The notes below the pieces were generated by a model. The model saw only the letters and a program-made list of their open reading frames with translations, was not told the DNA's origin and ran no database searches. DNA of 64,000 bases from positions 22,411 through 86,410 of the forward strand of contig PBAU01000002.1 of the NCBI GenBank assembly GCA_002716355.1, written 5' to 3'. Shown here piece by piece: positions 6,665 through 59,938 of this stretch. Every line of letters begins with the position of its first letter. The first letter of the stretch is position 1. The position numbers and the translations under genes are program-made. This DNA comes from a bacterium (GTDB lineage: Bacteria > UBP7 > UBA6624).

Positions 6665-6675
6665 AATGCTCTTTT

Positions 6676-6748
6676 GCGCTCGTAGCTCAACTGGCAGAGC
6701 GTCGGCTTGCGGAGCCGAAGGTTGTAGGTTCAAGTCCTACCGGGCGTG
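6676..6748 (+). tRNA. tRNA-Arg, anticodon read as GCG
   Basis: Hand-folded cloverleaf of 73 nt. The acceptor stem is GCGCTCG/CGGGCGT (two G-U pairs), the D arm GCTC-AACTGGCA-GAGC, the anticodon stem TCGGC/GCCGA with loop TTGCGGA, and the T arm GTAGG-TTCAAGT-CCTAC. The discriminator is G and no CCA is encoded. Confidence 0.8.
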
Positions 6749-6765
6749 TATACACAACTGAACAA

Positions 6766-6838
6766 GCGCTCGTAGCTCAACAGGCAGAGCGAGGCCCTCC
6801 TAAGGCCTAGGCTAGAGGTTCGAGTCCTCTCGAGCGTG
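6766..6838 (+). tRNA. tRNA-Arg, anticodon CCT
   Basis: 73-nt cloverleaf. The acceptor stem is GCGCTCG/CGAGCGT, the anticodon stem AGGCC/GGCCT with loop CTCCTAA, and the T arm AGAGG-TTCGAGT-CCTCT. The first 26 nt differ from the neighbouring tRNA at a single position. Confidence 0.85.
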
Positions 6839-9695: not shown

Positions 9696-10266
9696 TAATT
9701 TCCATTTTTATCCAATTAAAACCTTTCTTATAGCCTCTCTTGGAGGCAAAACCTGTTGAACAAATTGTACATTCCTGATTGAAGCTTATATTTTCACCTA
9801 GTTGACTCCTTAAAATTTTACCCATGTTGAGAAAAGATTTATTGTCTCGATTAATCAAGAAGGGTTTTCCAAAGTGTTCCATGCCTTGTTTTTTTCCAAA
9901 TTCATAACAGCACTCTTTAGCAAAAGGGAAAACATGTATATCAACCTCTCCGTTAAAAAAACCTTGCATCTTTTGGCATATTCCGGAAGCAATGCCCCTC
10001 CAGCCTGCGTGAACTATTCCTGCAGATTTTGCCCCAACAAATGCAACGCAAGTGCAATCTGCAGTTTTAATCCAATACCGTCCTGCCTTGGTTGCAAAAA
10101 TACCATCAGCAGCTAAATTGTTATGTTGCGGGTTTTTTAATATTTTAGTTTCATGTTTTTGCTGCAACCTTATACCTTCTTTTGGCATATATGGTGGCAA
10201 ATAGAGCGAAAAGGTAACCTTTTTATTCAGTTTGGAAAACCATTTCATCATTATGGATATTATCAT
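9682..10266 (-). CDS. pgeF: Peptidoglycan editing factor / YfiH (DUF152, laccase-domain) family protein
   Basis: Contains TADCTCVAF...IVHAGWRGIASGI, KECCYEFG and a C-terminal CTICSTGFASKRG, the YfiH family motif order (ADCxP...HAGWRG...C.YEV...CT...F.S.R). Confidence 0.7.
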   Translation of the reverse strand: MIISIMMKWFSKLNKKVTFSLYLPPYMPKEGIRLQQKHETKILKNPQHNNLAADGIFATKAGRYWIKTADCTCVAFVGAKSAGIVHAGWRGIASGICQKMQGFFNGEVDIHVFPFAKECCYEFGKKQGMEHFGKPFLINRDNKSFLNMGKILRSQLGENISFNQECTICSTGFASKRGYKKGFNWIKMEISESE

Positions 10267-10277
10267 TTAATATTGCT

Positions 10278-10360
10278 GCCGGTGTGGCGGAATGGTAGAC
10301 GCGACGGACTTAAAATCCGTTGTCCGCAAGGACGTGGGGGTTCGAGTCCCTTCGCCGGCA
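10278..10360 (+). tRNA. tRNA-Leu, anticodon TAA (class II, long variable arm)
   Basis: 83-nt cloverleaf. The acceptor stem is GCCGGTG/CGCCGGC, the anticodon stem ACGGA/TCCGT with loop CTTAAAA, the long variable arm TGTCCGCAAGGACGT, and the T loop TTCGAGT. The discriminator is A. The gene is contiguous, with no intron. Confidence 0.85.
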
Positions 10361-10371
10361 TGCTTAATATT

Positions 10372-10845
10372 ATGGATGTTTTAATTGGGCAAAAACTTGC
10401 AAAACTAAGGCAACAAAAGGGTCTTACCCTAAATGATGTTGCCAAAGAGGTGGGGATATCTGCTGTATACATCTCTCTATTGGAAAGAGGGTTAAGAAAA
10501 AACCCAAGCAAAGAAGTCTTGAAAAGATTGGTTAGCCTTTATGGTGTCTCTGAAACAAGCTTGCTTAAGCCAGGATCCTCGTCGCCACCTGTTGAGGATG
10601 ATTCTGGTGGTGTTGATTACACACAAACTCAAGTAACACCTGGAGCTATACCGAAAAATCCTCAGGGTATTCCTGTATCTGTTCGTCGTTTTTTAGAGAG
10701 TGAAGATGCTGATTTCCTAAGGCCAAGTGCCGGTGAAATACGAATCCTCGTTGCATGGGCGAGAAAAAACCACCATGCATCCCCTGAAGAAGTTATGTTT
10801 TATCTTATTGAGAAAGTGAGGCCATCACTACCAAAACAATTTTGA
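10372..10845 (+). CDS. XRE-family helix-turn-helix transcriptional regulator
   Basis: IGQKLAKLRQQKGLTLNDVAKEVGISAVYISLLERGLRKNPS is a classic Cro/C1 HTH. The track ORF (10153) reads through the tRNA-Leu, so I trimmed it to the ATG at 10372; an ATG at 10360 is an alternative. The C-terminal ~90 aa are uncharacterised. Confidence 0.7.
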   Translation: MDVLIGQKLAKLRQQKGLTLNDVAKEVGISAVYISLLERGLRKNPSKEVLKRLVSLYGVSETSLLKPGSSSPPVEDDSGGVDYTQTQVTPGAIPKNPQGIPVSVRRFLESEDADFLRPSAGEIRILVAWARKNHHASPEEVMFYLIEKVRPSLPKQF

Positions 10846-54032: not shown

Positions 54033-55001
54033 TTGAATGCACATAACAAATATACAATTGAGAAGATGATGACAGAGGATCGTACAAACAAGGTTCATTT
54101 AAACGTTATCAGGTTAGGCAAGCTGGTTGTTTTTGCGTTAAAAAAAGCTCTTAAGGGTAGCACCTTTAACATAGATGCTTTTCTTGCAAAATGCAGAGCA
54201 AGAGAGACTGAAATCAACCTGTTAGAGATGGAAATTGAACAGGATCTCCAGACTTTAATGAGACCAGAGCTGGAAGATAAAGATTGTCGTCACTTTACAG
54301 CGTTGTTGAAAATCAATAATGACCTTGAGAGGATTGGCGATTATGCCATGGCGATAGCTAAATATCTTGTTGATGTTGACATGTCAGAAACGGTGAAAAT
54401 TGAATCCAAATTTAAAAAATTATCAAAAGCATCTATAGAGATGCTTGAAAGATCCGTTAAGGCAATAGAGCTTGAAGATATCAACCTAGCCAAGCAGGTT
54501 ATTCGTGATGACGATTATGTTGATAAATTGAACAAGGCAATAATCAAGATTCTTTTAAGCAGTAAAAATCCAGATATGGCTTCGGTTGTTTCGTTGGTTA
54601 ATTTGTGTAGAAGATTGGAGAGGACAGCAGATCATGCAACCAACATAGCAGAAGATTTGGTTTTTTGGATAGAGGGTGATGTTTTGAGGCATCCCACAAA
54701 AAAAAGATCCTTTATGTTTAATGAGATTGAAATATATCCAAACAGCAGAGAGATTAAGATTTCAGAAAAGGTCCATCTTTCTAAAAGTGAATGGGAGATA
54801 TTCATACACCTTATAGAAAGATCTCCAGACGGTGTTTCTAGAGAGGATCTTATGAAAAATGCTTTAGGCTACGACTCTTCTGTTGAAACTCGAACTATCG
54901 ATCAACACGTGGTTAGATTGCGAAAAAAACTAGGCCACAAAAAAACACTTTTGAAATCTATAGCTGGATTCGGTTACAAAGTGGTTAATTCAAAGAATTA
55001 A
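54033..55001 (+). CDS. PhoU domain fused to an OmpR/PhoB-type winged-helix DNA-binding domain (no receiver domain)
   Basis: Residues 1-220 hold two PhoU repeats (NNDLERIGDYAMAIAK; CRRLERTADHATNIAEDLVFWIEGD). Residues ~227-318 read LSKSEWEIFIHLIERSPDGVSREDLMKNALGYDSSVETRTIDQHVVRLRKKLG...IAGFGYKV, which is the trans_reg_C pattern (Lt.kEf.lL..L....G.v.sRe.L......vetRtvDvhi.rLRkKl...tvrG.GY). Confidence 0.8.
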   Translation: MNAHNKYTIEKMMTEDRTNKVHLNVIRLGKLVVFALKKALKGSTFNIDAFLAKCRARETEINLLEMEIEQDLQTLMRPELEDKDCRHFTALLKINNDLERIGDYAMAIAKYLVDVDMSETVKIESKFKKLSKASIEMLERSVKAIELEDINLAKQVIRDDDYVDKLNKAIIKILLSSKNPDMASVVSLVNLCRRLERTADHATNIAEDLVFWIEGDVLRHPTKKRSFMFNEIEIYPNSREIKISEKVHLSKSEWEIFIHLIERSPDGVSREDLMKNALGYDSSVETRTIDQHVVRLRKKLGHKKTLLKSIAGFGYKVVNSKN

Positions 55002-55089
55002 AACAAATTTGTTACAAGTTTTTAAAAAATCACAAAGAATACTATTTAAGATTTCAACTTAAATCCAAAAAGGAGGATTTTATATAAAA

Positions 55090-55974
55090 ATGAAATTTAA
55101 ATTTTCAAGCTTTTTTATATTGTTAGTTTTAGTAGTTACCAGTTGTGCAAGGCCGCAGGATTCTGAAGGAAATGCCGCAGGAAGTAGTTCCTCGGGAAGC
55201 GAGCAAAGCATACAGGTGACAGGCTCTGACACCATGGTTAACTTAGGTCAAGCATGGGCTGAAGAATATACAAAAACGAACCCCAACGCATATATTGCTG
55301 TTGGTGGCGGAGGCTCTGGTGTTGGGATCGCTGCCTTGATGAATGGAACTGCTGATCTCGCAAATTCATCCAGAGCAATTAAGGACAAAGAGATCTCAAA
55401 GGCAAACGAACTTGGCTTCGGTATCAAGGAGTATATTGTTGGTTGGGATGGGCTTGCTGTTGTCGTTCACCCAGATAATCCAGTTAACCAATTGTCAATT
55501 TTGCAAATCGCAGAAATTTTTACTGCCAAAATTACAAACTGGAAAGAGGTTGGTGGTGATGATTTAGAGATTGTTTTGTTGTCACGAGAGGTAAATAGTG
55601 GAACACATGTTTACTTCAAAGAAAATGTCGTTGGATCTTTAGGTAAGGGTACTGAATTCAGCGAAGAGGCGTTATTGATGCCAAGTAGCCAAGCACTTGC
55701 TGATGAGGTAACAAATAATATTGGCGCAATTGGCTATTATGGCATGGGTTATTTGTCACCATCACAAAAGCCAATTGATGTATCTGTTGATGGGGTTGTT
55801 TTTGTTCCACCAACTATAGAAAATGTTCTTAATAAAACATATCCAATTGCGAGACCCCTACACATGTTTTCAAGAGATAACATTTCTGCAGCAGCAAAAG
55901 CTTATATTGAGTGGATAATGGGAGAGGGGGGCCAGGCTGTTGTTGCAGCACAGGATTTTGTCCCCTTGAGCTGA
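55090..55974 (+). CDS. pstS: Phosphate ABC transporter substrate-binding lipoprotein
   Basis: Lipobox VVTSC, then GSDTMVNLGQAWAEEY, GGGSGVG and SREVNSGTH. AGGAGGA lies upstream of the ATG. Confidence 0.9.
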   Translation: MKFKFSSFFILLVLVVTSCARPQDSEGNAAGSSSSGSEQSIQVTGSDTMVNLGQAWAEEYTKTNPNAYIAVGGGGSGVGIAALMNGTADLANSSRAIKDKEISKANELGFGIKEYIVGWDGLAVVVHPDNPVNQLSILQIAEIFTAKITNWKEVGGDDLEIVLLSREVNSGTHVYFKENVVGSLGKGTEFSEEALLMPSSQALADEVTNNIGAIGYYGMGYLSPSQKPIDVSVDGVVFVPPTIENVLNKTYPIARPLHMFSRDNISAAAKAYIEWIMGEGGQAVVAAQDFVPLS

Positions 55975-56005
55975 CTTTAGCCTGATTTGATTAAGATTTG
56001 AACTT

Positions 56006-56917
56006 GTGAAAAATATAAAATTAAAAAAGCATAAAACAGAGACTTTCAAACAGCCTCTGTCTGAAAAAATAACAGAGGCATGCTTGCGTTTTGCAGCATG
56101 GCTATGCATCTTTTTTATTGCCTGCATTCTTTATTTTTTAGTAAAAGAAAGTGGCGGGGTTTTTTTTAGTGACATTTTTACTATTACAGGTAAATTTTGG
56201 AGACCAATCAGTGAACCTCCAGATTTTGGTGTTTGGGTATTGCTTGCAGGCAGTTTGGCAGTAACGTTAACAGCATCTCTAATCGCAGTGCCCCTAGGGA
56301 TTTGTGCAGCTATTTTTATCGGCGAACTGCTGCCACAGAAATTTAGAGAATTTTTGAAAGTTATAGTTGAATTTCTAGCAGCAATACCAAGTGTTGTTAT
56401 TGGGTTCTTGGGCATGATTATTCTTGCACCATACATCAAGGAAGCTTTTGACCTAAAAACAGGCTTAACGGCTTTTTCGGCAGCATTGATGCTTGCATGG
56501 ATGGCAATGCCGACAATAGTCAGTTTAACTGAGGATGCTCTCAGAAGTGTACCTGATACTTTAAGAGATGGGGCTCTTGCTCTTGGTGCTACCAAATGGC
56601 AAATGATCACAAGGGTGCTTTTGCCAACAGCAAAACCAGGCATACTTGCTGCAGCAATGCTTGGTGTTGGAAGGGTGATAGGTGAAACAATGGCGGTTTT
56701 AATGATTAGTGGTAATTCTGCCAGGATACCAAGTAGCATCATGGAGCCAGTCAGAACTCTCACTGCAACAATTGCTGCAGAAATGGGAGAAACAGTCAAG
56801 GGCGATGAGCATTATCAAGCCCTTTTTGGCTTGGGTGTTGTTTTATTTATTATCACATTGCTAATTAATACTGCAGCAGATAGGTTTATTAATAAAAAAT
56901 ACACAGAAGAATCATGA
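56006..56917 (+). CDS. pstC: Phosphate ABC transporter permease PstC
   Basis: Polytopic permease with the EAA-type loop (DALRSVPDTLRDGALALGATKWQ). Confidence 0.9.
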   Translation: MKNIKLKKHKTETFKQPLSEKITEACLRFAAWLCIFFIACILYFLVKESGGVFFSDIFTITGKFWRPISEPPDFGVWVLLAGSLAVTLTASLIAVPLGICAAIFIGELLPQKFREFLKVIVEFLAAIPSVVIGFLGMIILAPYIKEAFDLKTGLTAFSAALMLAWMAMPTIVSLTEDALRSVPDTLRDGALALGATKWQMITRVLLPTAKPGILAAAMLGVGRVIGETMAVLMISGNSARIPSSIMEPVRTLTATIAAEMGETVKGDEHYQALFGLGVVLFIITLLINTAADRFINKKYTEES

Positions 56918-57774
56918 ACTTTAAAAAACAAAATCCAATCAACCAGCAAAAAAGGGCCACTTTTGGCTTGGGGCTTATAACAGCCATTGTGGTTATTCCG
57001 GTTTTATTGATACTAGGTGTTGTTTTTGTTAAGGGTATTTCAGTTATAGATTGGAACTTCCTGACCACTGAACCCACCAATGGTTTAAGAGAGGGCGGGG
57101 TTTTCCCGGCCATAGTTGGAACATTGATCCTGGTTGTTGGGGCCGTGGTTTGGAGTGTCCCTTTTGGTGTGGCTACTGCAATTTATCTTGTTGAATATTC
57201 TCCAAGAAGCCGAGCAGCTAACTTGGTTAGGTTAGCAATCTTAAATTTAGCAGGAGTCCCCAGTGTTGTTTACGGGTTGTTTGGCTTGGGGGTGTTTGTC
57301 ATAGCTTTAAAATTTGGCGCAAGCATTTTAGCGGGAACTTTAACCCTTGCTCTGATGGGTTTGCCAGTAATAGTCACATCAACTGCAGAAGCGTTAAAAG
57401 CTGTTCCTGATAGATTCAGAGAAGCAAGCTTGGCATTGGGTGCTAGCAAATGGCAAACAACTAGGCATGTTGTTCTTCCAAACTCCATACAGGGAATTTT
57501 GACCGGAATAATTTTAGAAATTAGTCGTGCTGGCGGAGAGACTGCACCAATTTTGTTCACTGTAGCAGCTTTTTATTTACCAAGATTGCCACAAAGTATC
57601 TTTGATCAGGTCATGGCGCTTCCAATGCATCTTTTTGCAATCTCAACACAGGTGCCTAACATAGGCTTGGATGTGAGATATGCAGTTGCCTTAACGTTGT
57701 TGTTTTTAGTTTTAGGCATCAATGCAGTTGCAATTTCCATAAGAGCAAAAATTAGGAAAAACAGAATATGGTAA
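56914..57774 (+). CDS. pstA: Phosphate ABC transporter permease PstA
   Basis: Polytopic permease with EALKAVPDRFREASLALGASKWQ. There is a 4-nt overlap with pstC. Confidence 0.9.
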   Translation: MNFKKQNPINQQKRATFGLGLITAIVVIPVLLILGVVFVKGISVIDWNFLTTEPTNGLREGGVFPAIVGTLILVVGAVVWSVPFGVATAIYLVEYSPRSRAANLVRLAILNLAGVPSVVYGLFGLGVFVIALKFGASILAGTLTLALMGLPVIVTSTAEALKAVPDRFREASLALGASKWQTTRHVVLPNSIQGILTGIILEISRAGGETAPILFTVAAFYLPRLPQSIFDQVMALPMHLFAISTQVPNIGLDVRYAVALTLLFLVLGINAVAISIRAKIRKNRIW

Positions 57775-58517
57775 AAGAAATCATTATTAAATCTTTGTCG
57801 GTTTCATATGGAAACAAACAGGCAATAAGAAATTTGTCTTTATCGGTTGAAAAAAATGAAATATTAGGAATCATTGGTCCTACTACTTCAGGAAAAACAA
57901 CCTTACTTACAGTTTTAAACAGAATGATCGACACAATACCGTCAGTTGCGATTTCCGGCAATGTTTCCATGGGTGATATTGATGTTTTGACAACACCAAA
58001 CATCCATAGTCTCAGGAGGTCTGTTGGGATGATTTTTGCCCTTCCGGTCGCTTTGCCCATGACTATTAGGGAAAATGTTGAATATGGCCCAAAGATGGCT
58101 GGAGAGGCAAAAGGAGAGTTGGAGACAAGGGTTAAAGAAAGTCTTGTGCAGGCTGGATTATGGGATGAGGTGCACGACAGGTTGGACACCCCGGCATTAA
58201 AGCTTTCAGGCGGCCAGCAACAAAGGCTTTGCATCGCAAGGGCTTTAGCATTAAAGCCAAAGGTTTTATTGCTTGATGAGCCTTGTTCGGGGCTTGATCC
58301 AATCTCAACATCCAGAATAGAGGATACACTGAGTCAATTAAAAAATGACATGACTATCATCTTGGTCACAAACAACCCCCATCAAGCTGCTCGTGTTGCT
58401 CATCGAACAGCTTTTATGCTTAAGGGCGAGCTTATCGAGCTTGCTGACACAGACACACTGTTCACAAATCCTGCAGACAATAGAACAAAAGAATACATTG
58501 AGGGTAAATTTGGATAA
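57768..58517 (+). CDS. PstB-like ATPase with substituted Q-loop and H-loop
   Basis: Walker A GPTTSGKTT, signature LSGGQQQRL and Walker B LLLDEP are all present. The Q-loop reads VGMIFALP (Gln to Ala) and the H-loop reads ILVTNNPHQAARV (TH to TN). Confidence 0.85.
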   Translation: MVKEIIIKSLSVSYGNKQAIRNLSLSVEKNEILGIIGPTTSGKTTLLTVLNRMIDTIPSVAISGNVSMGDIDVLTTPNIHSLRRSVGMIFALPVALPMTIRENVEYGPKMAGEAKGELETRVKESLVQAGLWDEVHDRLDTPALKLSGGQQQRLCIARALALKPKVLLLDEPCSGLDPISTSRIEDTLSQLKNDMTIILVTNNPHQAARVAHRTAFMLKGELIELADTDTLFTNPADNRTKEYIEGKFG

Positions 58518-59281
58518 TGGCAAAAACTCTAATTAAATCTGAAAAATTCAATTTGTGGTATGGTGACTTTCAAGCTTTAATTGATATAGATCTCGACATA
58601 CCAGAAAATCAAGTTACAGCTGTTGTGGGTCCTTCAGGATGCGGAAAAAGCACTTTTGTTCGTTGTATCAACAGGCTAAACGATCAAATAAACACAGTTA
58701 GCACCAAGGGTTCTATTTTTATTGATGGGACAGACATTTACCAATATACGGCTGATGAGGTTGTTGGGCTTAGGCGATCTGTCGGGATGGTTTTTCAGAG
58801 ACCCAACCCCTTTCCGCTTTCTGTTTTTGAAAACGTTGCTTTTGGCTTAAAGACAAACCCCATGGTTCCTGATCATCAAACCATAAAAAAGGAAGTCAAT
58901 AAAGCGCTGCAAGCGGTAGGTTTGCTTGAGGACCTAGACGGTAACCTTGCGAGACCAGGAACCAGTCTTTCCCTGGAACAGCAGCAAAGATTATGTATTG
59001 CAAGATGCCTGCCAACAAGGCCCAAAATATTGCTTATGGACGAACCTTGTTCAGCATTGGATCCAAGCGATACCGATAAGGTAGAGGAGCTCATAAGGGA
59101 ATTAAGGAAAGACTATACCGTTGTGATAGTGACCCACAACCTACAACAAGCTGGCAGAATTTCTGATCAATCTGTATTATTCCATTTGGGCAAAATTATT
59201 GAAGCAGCACCAACAGCAGATTTCTTCCAGAACCCGAAAGAAAAAAGAACAAGAGACTTTATTACAGGTCGTTATGGTTAG
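58517..59281 (+). CDS. pstB: Phosphate ABC transporter ATP-binding protein PstB (canonical catalytic motifs, altered signature motif)
   Basis: Walker A GPSGCGKST, Q-loop VGMVFQRPNPFP, Walker B LLMDEP and H-loop VIVTHNLQQAGR are canonical. The signature motif reads LSLEQQQRL instead of LSGGQ. Confidence 0.9.
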   Translation: MAKTLIKSEKFNLWYGDFQALIDIDLDIPENQVTAVVGPSGCGKSTFVRCINRLNDQINTVSTKGSIFIDGTDIYQYTADEVVGLRRSVGMVFQRPNPFPLSVFENVAFGLKTNPMVPDHQTIKKEVNKALQAVGLLEDLDGNLARPGTSLSLEQQQRLCIARCLPTRPKILLMDEPCSALDPSDTDKVEELIRELRKDYTVVIVTHNLQQAGRISDQSVLFHLGKIIEAAPTADFFQNPKEKRTRDFITGRYG

Positions 59282-59290
59282 GAGTTAAAT

Positions 59291-59938
59291 ATGACTAAAA
59301 GATTAACAAAACTTATTGATAAAATCAAAGTAAAAACCTTGGCAATGGCTCAAGATGTTTGCAAATCAATGGATGATGCAATGGAGGCAATTTTAAATTC
59401 TAGCGATGATAAATATCAAGCAATGAAACAACGAGAAGATAATATTGATTCGCTAGAAGTTGAGATCGAAGAATCCATACTTGGCACCATTGCTGTCCAT
59501 CAACCTGTTGCAGATGATTTAAGAATTCTTGCAGCAATGTTGAAGATTACAAATGACTTAGAAAGAATTGGTGATTATGCGATCAAAATTGCTCAAAGGG
59601 GCAAGGATATTGACGCCAACTTGATCAAGAGCATCAAAGCTCCTTTGTCTAAATTGGGAACATCTTCAATCCAGATGATTAAAGATGCAGTACAGGCTTT
59701 AGACGCAGGAGATGCAGATTTAGCCCAGAAGGTTAGAGATGCTGATGACCAGGTGGATGAGCTTAACAAATCCCTCATAAAGGAATTATCCAAAATCGAT
59801 GATGATGACTTTGAGTCCTTGGTCGCACTGGTTTCAATATCCAGAAGATTCGAAAGAGCTGCTGATCATGCAACAAACATAGCAGAAGATGTTTTGTTCT
59901 GGCTTGAAGGCAGGATATTCAGACACGGTGAAACCTAA
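59291..59938 (+). CDS. phoU: Phosphate signalling complex protein PhoU
   Basis: 215 aa with two PhoU repeats (TNDLERIGDYAIKIAQ; SRRFERAADHATNIAEDVLFWLEG). Confidence 0.9.
   Translation: MTKRLTKLIDKIKVKTLAMAQDVCKSMDDAMEAILNSSDDKYQAMKQREDNIDSLEVEIEESILGTIAVHQPVADDLRILAAMLKITNDLERIGDYAIKIAQRGKDIDANLIKSIKAPLSKLGTSSIQMIKDAVQALDAGDADLAQKVRDADDQVDELNKSLIKELSKIDDDDFESLVALVSISRRFERAADHATNIAEDVLFWLEGRIFRHGET

Follow-up and report, generated by a model that had tools for sequence, protein, structure and literature searches.

In the Pst phosphate importers of the textbooks, two identical PstB subunits provide two equivalent ATP sites. How much ATP an ATP-binding cassette (ABC) importer spends per cycle, and what its second site does, are long-standing questions that have been approached mainly through engineered mutants or through exporters with a degenerate site. 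The 2026 structures of Escherichia coli PstSCAB likewise contain an identical PstB pair with equivalent ATP sites: each ATP is held by Walker A and Walker B from one PstB and the LSGGQ signature of the other, one copy of PstB is seated on PstA and the second on PstC via coupling helices, and the PstB substitution E179Q abolishes ATPase activity (PMC12976172). Here, we describe a 64,000-nucleotide stretch of contig PBAU01000002.1 (positions 22,411 to 86,410 of the forward strand; hereafter, the window), from a bacterium of the lineage UBP7, in which a phosphate-uptake operon carries two different pstB genes in tandem. Their products, B1 and B2, depart from the consensus ATPase motifs in complementary ways, and a B1-B2 pair would have one consensus ATP site and one degenerate site.

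Tandem pstB genes are known from Firmicutes. Enterococcus faecalis requires pstB2, whereas its pstB1 has an accessory role, and excess PstB2 can replace PstB1; the study describes itself as the first functional comparison of tandem pstB paralogues (PMC12096839). The Bacillus subtilis proteins PstBA and PstBB have been modelled as a heterodimer, with no comment on degeneracy (PMC11466899). In TAP, CFTR, TM287/288, and BmrCD, altered catalytic loops on one nucleotide-binding domain and an altered signature on the other are the hallmark of a degenerate site (PMC7756269).

Motifs and family membership of the two PstB proteins

The genes pstB1 (57768-58517, + strand, 249 aa) and pstB2 (58517-59281, + strand, 254 aa) share 1 nt, as a sequence-only reading of this DNA had described: the TAA stop of the former and the ATG of the latter have base 58517 in common (GGATAATGG). 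In B1, the signature LSGGQQQRL is intact (from 58203), the Walker B motif LLLDEP includes the catalytic Glu171, and the D-loop is SGLD. Its Walker A motif, GPTTSGKT (57876-57899), keeps the P-loop Lys and Thr and has Thr at position 4, off the ABC consensus GxxGxGK[ST]. The earlier statement that this copy keeps both Walker motifs and the signature thus stands for Walker B, LSGGQQQRL, and the Walker A Lys and Thr, and has to be amended at position 4, where Walker A is mildly non-canonical. The two losses that had been reported for B1 are there to be read in the DNA, against which the translation was checked: the Q-loop VGMIFALP has Ala91 (codon 58038-58040) where Gln is expected, and the H-loop LVTNNPHQA has Asn202 (codon 58371-58373) where His is expected.

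B2 has canonical Walker A (GPSGCGKS), Walker B (ILLMDEP), and D-loop (SALD) motifs, a Q-loop, VGMVFQRP, with Gln94 at 58796-58798, and an H-loop, VTHNLQQA, with His207 at 59135-59137. Its signature is LSLEQQQRL, without the Gly-Gly of LSGGQ; Leu153 and Glu154 take their place in the stretch encoding LSLEQ (58967-58981), and DNA and translation agree with what had been claimed for this copy. Neither protein, taken singly, has the full canonical set of catalytic motifs.

Profile comparisons place both proteins unambiguously in the PstB family, as full-length nucleotide-binding domains. The PstB model TIGR00972, of 248 positions, is matched by B1 over positions 3-248 (306.8 bits) and by B2 over positions 2-248 (332.8 bits); PF00005 matches both, and the comparison of B2 with PDB PstB gives E = 1.9e-73. 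Identity is 37% between B1 and B2; against E. coli PstB, it is 44% for B1 and 49% for B2. The TIGR00972 cut-off of 343.2 bits is reached by neither protein, while typical members in other lineages score 319-369 bits (B1-type) and 319-393 bits (B2-type) and so straddle or pass it, which suggests that the window pair is a divergent lineage inside the PstB family. Assignment of either copy to another ABC family was considered and ruled out, since the best non-Pst family scores about 154 bits, more than 150 bits below the PstB model for B1 and B2 alike. The same scores contradict the idea that one copy comes from a different transporter family, which the sequence-only reading had named as an outcome that would overturn its proposal.

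An AlphaFold monomer model of B1 (pLDDT 93.6, pTM 0.90) has E. coli PstB as its best structural matches, namely 9k3x_C (TM 0.94, 1.3 Å) and 9k3s_C (TM 0.90). Because the model is confident and superposes on E. coli PstB, B1 is predicted to be an intact nucleotide-binding domain and not a remnant.

Pairing and co-variation across bacterial lineages

Conservation was assessed in the best 120 database homologues each for B1 and B2. Among those of B1, the Q-loop position is Ala in 119 and the H-loop position is Asn in all 120; all 120 also have LSGGQQQR, Lys in Walker A, and Asp-Glu in Walker B; the A-loop has an aromatic residue (Tyr or Phe) in 117, and position 4 of Walker A is Asn, Arg, or Thr in 111. 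Their sources are named as Firestonebacteria, Deltaproteobacteria, Armatimonadota, Actinobacteria, Chlamydiota, and Eisenbacteria, among others. Approximately 105 of the 120 B2 homologues have LS[LG]E-type signatures, and their Walker A, Q-loop, Walker B, D-loop, and H-loop are canonical. The D-loop also separates the two types: it is SGLD in 115 of 117 B1-type proteins (58287-58298 in the window) and SALD or STLD in B2-type proteins (59051-59062 in the window) and canonical PstBs. The D-loop extends into the partner's site, the consensus one, and its change in B1 is conserved.

Pairing was examined by scans in both directions, with motifs assigned by alignment guided by hidden Markov models. 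The forward scan covered one genome per GTDB species for DNA encoding a Gln-less Q-loop, G-M-[IV]-F-A-x-P-x-P-L-P; the reverse scan covered metagenome contigs for a signature with Glu at position 4, E-Q-x-Q-R-L-C-I-A-R. Each gave at least 120 loci. Among the 120 forward loci listed, 116 had a B1-type open reading frame (ORF), and a second PstB gene lay directly downstream in 96; 13 of the 116 had no room for it on the fetched DNA, and 7 are apparent exceptions. None of the 95 readable signatures of the downstream partners at these loci is LSGGQ. They read LSLEQ (30), LSLGQ (25), LPLDQ (10), LNPGQ (5), LSLGE (4), and rarer forms, and the Q-loop Gln, Walker B Asp-Glu, and H-loop His of the partners are canonical in every readable case. 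The B1-type proteins always have LSGGQ or FSGGQ. Four pattern matches without a B1-type ORF were set aside: L004 and L032 are chance matches in Stenotrophomonas, and L040 and L052 are matches cut by the locus edge.

The reverse scan gives the same picture. Among its 120 loci listed, a B1-type gene was found in 91 of the 91 with enough DNA, directly upstream in 89, and 26 loci had no room. The upstream partners have H-loop Asn in 89 of 89 and an xSGGQ signature in all; Gln occurs in none of their readable Q-loops, which mostly have Ala and in a few cases Ser, Asp, or Pro. The apparent exceptions L160 and L205 have the order B2-pstS-pstC-pstA-B1-phoU, with the partner present. L103 also has B2 upstream of pstS, the ATPase genes lying at opposite ends of the operon as in L160 and L205, and L057 has B2 in the same locus, in divergent orientation. 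The ORF in L064 is merged or frameshifted.

Across the 240 related loci examined, the commonest gene order is pstS-C-A-B1-B2-phoU. The pair occurs in at least 15 bacterial phylum-level lineages, which by record title include Omnitrophota, Chloroflexota, Planctomycetota, Spirochaetota, Verrucomicrobiota/Lentisphaerae/PVC, Desulfobacterota-type Deltaproteobacteria, Desantis-, Firestone- and Margulisbacteria, Acidobacteriota/Aminicenantes, Armatimonadota, Ignavibacteria/Bacteroidota, Elusimicrobia, and Bacillota metagenome-assembled genomes. A chance pattern is ruled out by the family-wide conservation together with the pairing. Sporadic, unpaired substitutions in orthologues had been named beforehand as evidence that would speak against an asymmetric ATPase; the opposite was found, as the substitutions are conserved, and paired in both directions, in all these lineages. 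The case is neither a peculiarity of the window genome nor a recent duplication, and the class is old and widespread. In two loci, a separate canonical PstB (LSGGQ, Gln, His) lies a few kb from the B1/B2 operon (L083, 7355-7999, - strand; L046, 4177-4716, - strand), so that both kinds of Pst ATPase can share one genome.

The sequence-only reading had also proposed that the degenerate positions be examined for co-variation, and the H-loop residue of B1 does track position 4 of the B2 signature. In one class (N-class), the B1 H-loop has Asn and position 4 of the B2 signature is Glu, Asp, or Tyr (LSLEQ, LPLDQ, LTLEQ, LPLYQ, etc.); in the other (H-class), the B1 H-loop has His (IVPHSxQQA) and position 4 is Gly, the first Gly being lost (LSLGQ, LSLGE, LNPGQ, etc.). 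The Walker A motif of B1 differs with the class, GPxNSGK in the N-class and GPAGGGKT in the H-class, and in some of the H-class B1 proteins Walker B reads Asp-Asn or Asp-Asp, the Glu being lost. Example loci are L002, L007, and L026 versus L013, L022, and L045. Since the H-loop and the partner's signature face the same gamma-phosphate, this co-variation is as predicted for one co-evolving composite site.

Six positions tell B1 from B2 at 85% or more across all pairs, and four of them are 100% fixed in the B1 type. Three lie in the Q-loop, where B1 has Ala for Gln (100%), Leu for Arg/Lys (85%), and Leu for Phe (100%). A further one is the first signature Gly, which never varies in B1 and is Leu in 87% of B2 proteins; the last two positions show conservative changes (Walker A Ser/Thr; Met/Leu). 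In a neighbour-joining tree, all B1-type proteins form one clade without canonical PstBs, the B2-type proteins fall beside or among canonical PstBs, and the branching of the B1 subtree is mirrored in that of B2. This topology fits one old duplication followed by co-diversification of B1 and B2.

A candidate heterodimer with a single consensus site

In HisP, MalK, HlyB, and CFTR (G551D), hydrolysis all but ceases when the H-loop His is lost or when a bulky or acidic residue takes the place of a signature Gly. When the geometry of the E. coli PstB dimer (PMC12976172) is transferred to the window pair, both ATP sites of a B1 homodimer would lack the Q-loop Gln and the H-loop His, and those of a B2 homodimer would both be closed by LSLEQ. 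Only a B1-B2 dimer would have a consensus site, with all the defects collected in the other one; the convergence on a single composite site that the sequence-only reading had proposed thus follows from the known dimer. On this motif logic, it is disfavoured that each copy is an active homodimer. The layout is the one by which degenerate sites are recognized, with two non-identical domains, non-consensus catalytic residues only in B1, and the odd signature on B2.

The explanation that we consider best, and probably correct, is an obligate PstB1-PstB2 heterodimer with one hydrolytic consensus site and one degenerate site that binds ATP as a latch. One subunit would sit on PstA and the other on PstC. 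The consensus site would consist of Walker A, Walker B, Gln94, and His207 of B2, closed by the LSGGQ of B1, and would hydrolyse ATP and drive transport. The degenerate site would be made of B1's Walker A and Walker B with Ala91 and Asn202, plus the LSLEQ of B2; it would still bind ATP, with slow or no turnover. Binding without turnover is the most likely behaviour there because B1 retains the binding residues: Lys and Thr of Walker A, Asp of Walker B, and the aromatic residue of the A-loop. Such a site could act as a latch or allosteric site that helps the dimer to close, and a transport cycle would then cost about one ATP instead of two. That the subunits form a heterodimer, that the degenerate site binds ATP and does not hydrolyse it, and that a cycle has this ATP cost are inferences. 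A broader proposition, that a class present in at least 15 phylum-level lineages and unrecognised under the name 'PstB' works with a single hydrolytic site and uses the degenerate one as a latch or sensor, possibly read by PhoU, is put forward more tentatively, and we would lean somewhat against it in this complete form.

Other explanations should be kept in mind. Both ATP sites of a heterodimer might be competent, with Asn doing the work of the His, other residues that of the Q-loop Gln, and LSLEQ still able to close on ATP; the divergence would then reflect specialisation for docking on PstA versus PstC. In favour, the catalytic Glu is still there in B1, as are Lys in Walker A and Asp in Walker B, and the universal discriminators (Gln to Ala, Arg/Lys to Leu, Phe to Leu) belong to the Q-loop segment, where contact is also made with the coupling helix of the membrane subunits. 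We nevertheless hold this to be unlikely: the changed residues are those whose mutation kills ATPase activity in other ABC proteins, and all of them lie on one composite site; the B2 signature change plays no part in docking to the membrane subunits; and co-variation of the B1 H-loop with position 4 of the B2 signature points to a shared ATP site, not to the membrane interface. It is less probable still, in our view, that B1 is a regulatory or sensor ABC protein outside the motor, for example in PhoU-linked phosphate signalling, and that a B2 homodimer energises transport. That homodimer would have LSLEQ twice and no consensus site, and the invariant LSGGQ of B1 would be useful only opposite a catalytic partner. 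Two PhoU-type genes flank the window operon, and PhoU is known to contact PstB, both of which would suit a signalling role; B1 nevertheless co-occurs with B2 in 91 of the 91 reverse-scan loci with room, among those listed, and the two have co-diversified. One tandem PstB of E. faecalis is indeed only accessory (PMC12096839), but both proteins there are canonical in all their motifs, which sets that pair apart.

It seems highly improbable that the substitutions mark a redundant duplicate decaying as selection relaxed, or that the genes were assigned to the wrong ABC family. Both proteins score slightly under the TIGR00972 cut-off, as given above, but typical members of both types pass it, PstB remains the best family by the stated margin, the ORFs are full-length, and B1 has a confidently predicted fold. 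The 'defective' residues are, moreover, invariant across phyla. Both genes are under strong purifying selection: against the syntenic relative GCA_964343345.1 (locus L241), dN/dS is 0.076 for B1 and 0.026 for B2, compared with 0.026-0.053 for the other pst genes, values that are approximate because dS, at 1.0-2.0, is near saturation.

The approximate nature of these ratios is one of several points that count against the proposed single-site heterodimer. Glu171 is kept in B1, so residual hydrolysis at the degenerate site is possible. Both scans give lower bounds, draw mostly on metagenome-assembled genomes, and are each conditioned on one motif sub-class. The neighbour-joining tree is without bootstrap, and it places the window B2 on a long branch among canonical PstBs. 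Finally, five Chloroflexota loci (L003, L020, L093, L098, and L100) have a B1-type gene after pstA and no B2-type gene within the fetched 4-8 kb; four of these B1-type genes have Walker B Asp-Asn or Asp-Asp, and that of L020 has Asp-Glu. Here, B2 may lie upstream of pstS, as in L103, L160, and L205, or beyond the locus, or a further variant may be involved.

If the proposed asymmetric heterodimer is real, nature would provide a type I importer whose subunits can be separated, and the question of one versus two ATP per transport cycle could be tested in it directly. The system has tractable features, as the subunits are separate and soluble and the only possible consensus site needs both paralogues. 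Graded degeneracy is also at hand, in the His-retaining class with LSLGQ and the Asn class with LSLEQ. The arrangement may be an energy-saving adaptation of energy-limited lineages, and where the energy cost of phosphate uptake is modelled for Omnitrophota, Planctomycetota, Chloroflexota, Spirochaetota, and the PVC group, it may have to be set at one ATP per cycle, not two. For annotation, both genes carry the name 'PstB', and we recommend that neither be taken as a stand-alone ATPase.

Operon context and relation to described systems

The phosphate-uptake operon occupies 54033-59938 on the + strand, and consists of a complete pstS-C-A-B1-B2-phoU set plus an upstream PhoU-domain gene. All of its genes are on the + strand. 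The gene pstS (55090-55974) encodes a periplasmic phosphate-binding protein with a lipoprotein-like N-terminus (TIGR02136, 236 bits, cut-off 206.6; PF12849). The permease subunits are encoded by pstC (56006-56917; TIGR02138, 284.5 bits, cut-off 196) and pstA (56914-57774; TIGR00974, 280.3 bits, cut-off 193). The final gene, phoU (59291-59938), encodes an ordinary two-domain PhoU (TIGR02135, 162 bits, cut-off 130). Each of these four is above its curated NCBIfam cut-off. The gene pstA shares 4 nt with pstC and 7 nt with pstB1; the overlaps among pstA, pstB1, and pstB2 are of a kind typical of translational coupling and equimolar synthesis. There is no third PstB-like ORF within the 64-kb window, whose G+C content is 38.5%.

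The gene at 54033-55001, directly upstream of pstS, encodes a 322-aa fusion protein of two PhoU domains (residues ~18-216; PF01895 twice) and an OmpR/PhoB-type winged-helix domain (residues 245-316; PF00486), with no receiver domain; it scores 122 bits against TIGR02135, below the cut-off of 130. Only four clusters among the matches listed have this architecture (97%, 74%, 73%, and 35% identity), and the fusion was found at 0 of the 240 B1/B2 loci of other lineages. A role as part of the B1/B2 system was rejected, given its absence from those loci and its rarity in the protein database. The protein may be a lineage-specific, one-component phosphate regulator of the operon that replaces PhoR/PhoB.

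Elsewhere in the window, a mechanically called ORF at 10153-10845 (+ strand, 230 aa) encloses a tRNA-Leu(TAA) gene at 10277-10361 (+ strand). Because the tRNA gene lies fully inside it, this ORF is probably spurious, or has at least been given a wrong start. The window also has two tRNA-Arg genes, at 6675-6749 and 6766-6838.

The window system resembles E. coli PstSCAB (PDB 9k3x, 9k3y, and 9k3s; PMC12976172) in family, in its pstSCAB-phoU operon, in fold, and in site geometry. The E. coli importer, however, has two identical subunits and two consensus sites, whereas here one finds paralogues with complementary defects that would leave one consensus and one degenerate site. With the tandem PstBs of Firmicutes, those of E. 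faecalis (PMC12096839) and PstBA/PstBB of B. subtilis (PMC11466899), it shares adjacent, non-equivalent pstB paralogues in a pst-phoU operon. The motifs of the E. faecalis pair are reported to be identical to those of E. coli, whereas the window pair differs at the Q-loop, H-loop, and signature; unlike in E. faecalis, neither homodimer of the window proteins would have a consensus site.

The split of altered loops and altered signature between two domains is, as the sequence-only reading had noticed, the same as in heterodimeric exporters and channels such as TAP1/2, CFTR, TM287/288, TmrAB, BmrCD, LmrCD, and Rv1273c/72c (PMC7756269). Those proteins have a type IV fold with nucleotide-binding domains fused to membrane domains, whereas the window operon encodes a type I, binding-protein-dependent importer with free nucleotide-binding subunits. 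The usual hallmark of the exporters is loss of the Walker B Glu; in the window lineage, the Glu is kept, and what is constantly lost is the Q-loop Gln. The same reading had considered such an arrangement unusual for a type I importer such as Pst. Unusual it is, but there are precedents with fused domains: RbsA, NupO, and other CUT2-type ATPases are also importer ATPases with one non-canonical ATP site (PMC11466899). In RbsA and NupO, which belong to another family, the domains are fused and the second Walker A lacks its Lys, whereas the window operon has separate PstBs that both keep the Walker A Lys.

We found no description of a degenerate-site PstB pair in open-access papers and preprints, an absence that is not proof. 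NCBIfam has no model that tells the B1 type from the B2 type, and typical members of both pass its single PstB equivalog; as this equivalog covers both types, the class is hidden under one name. Its sequences suggest an apparently undescribed, widespread, and old variant of the Pst importer whose ATPase is obligately asymmetric; the window pair would be a divergent member of it. The variant is not a new principle.

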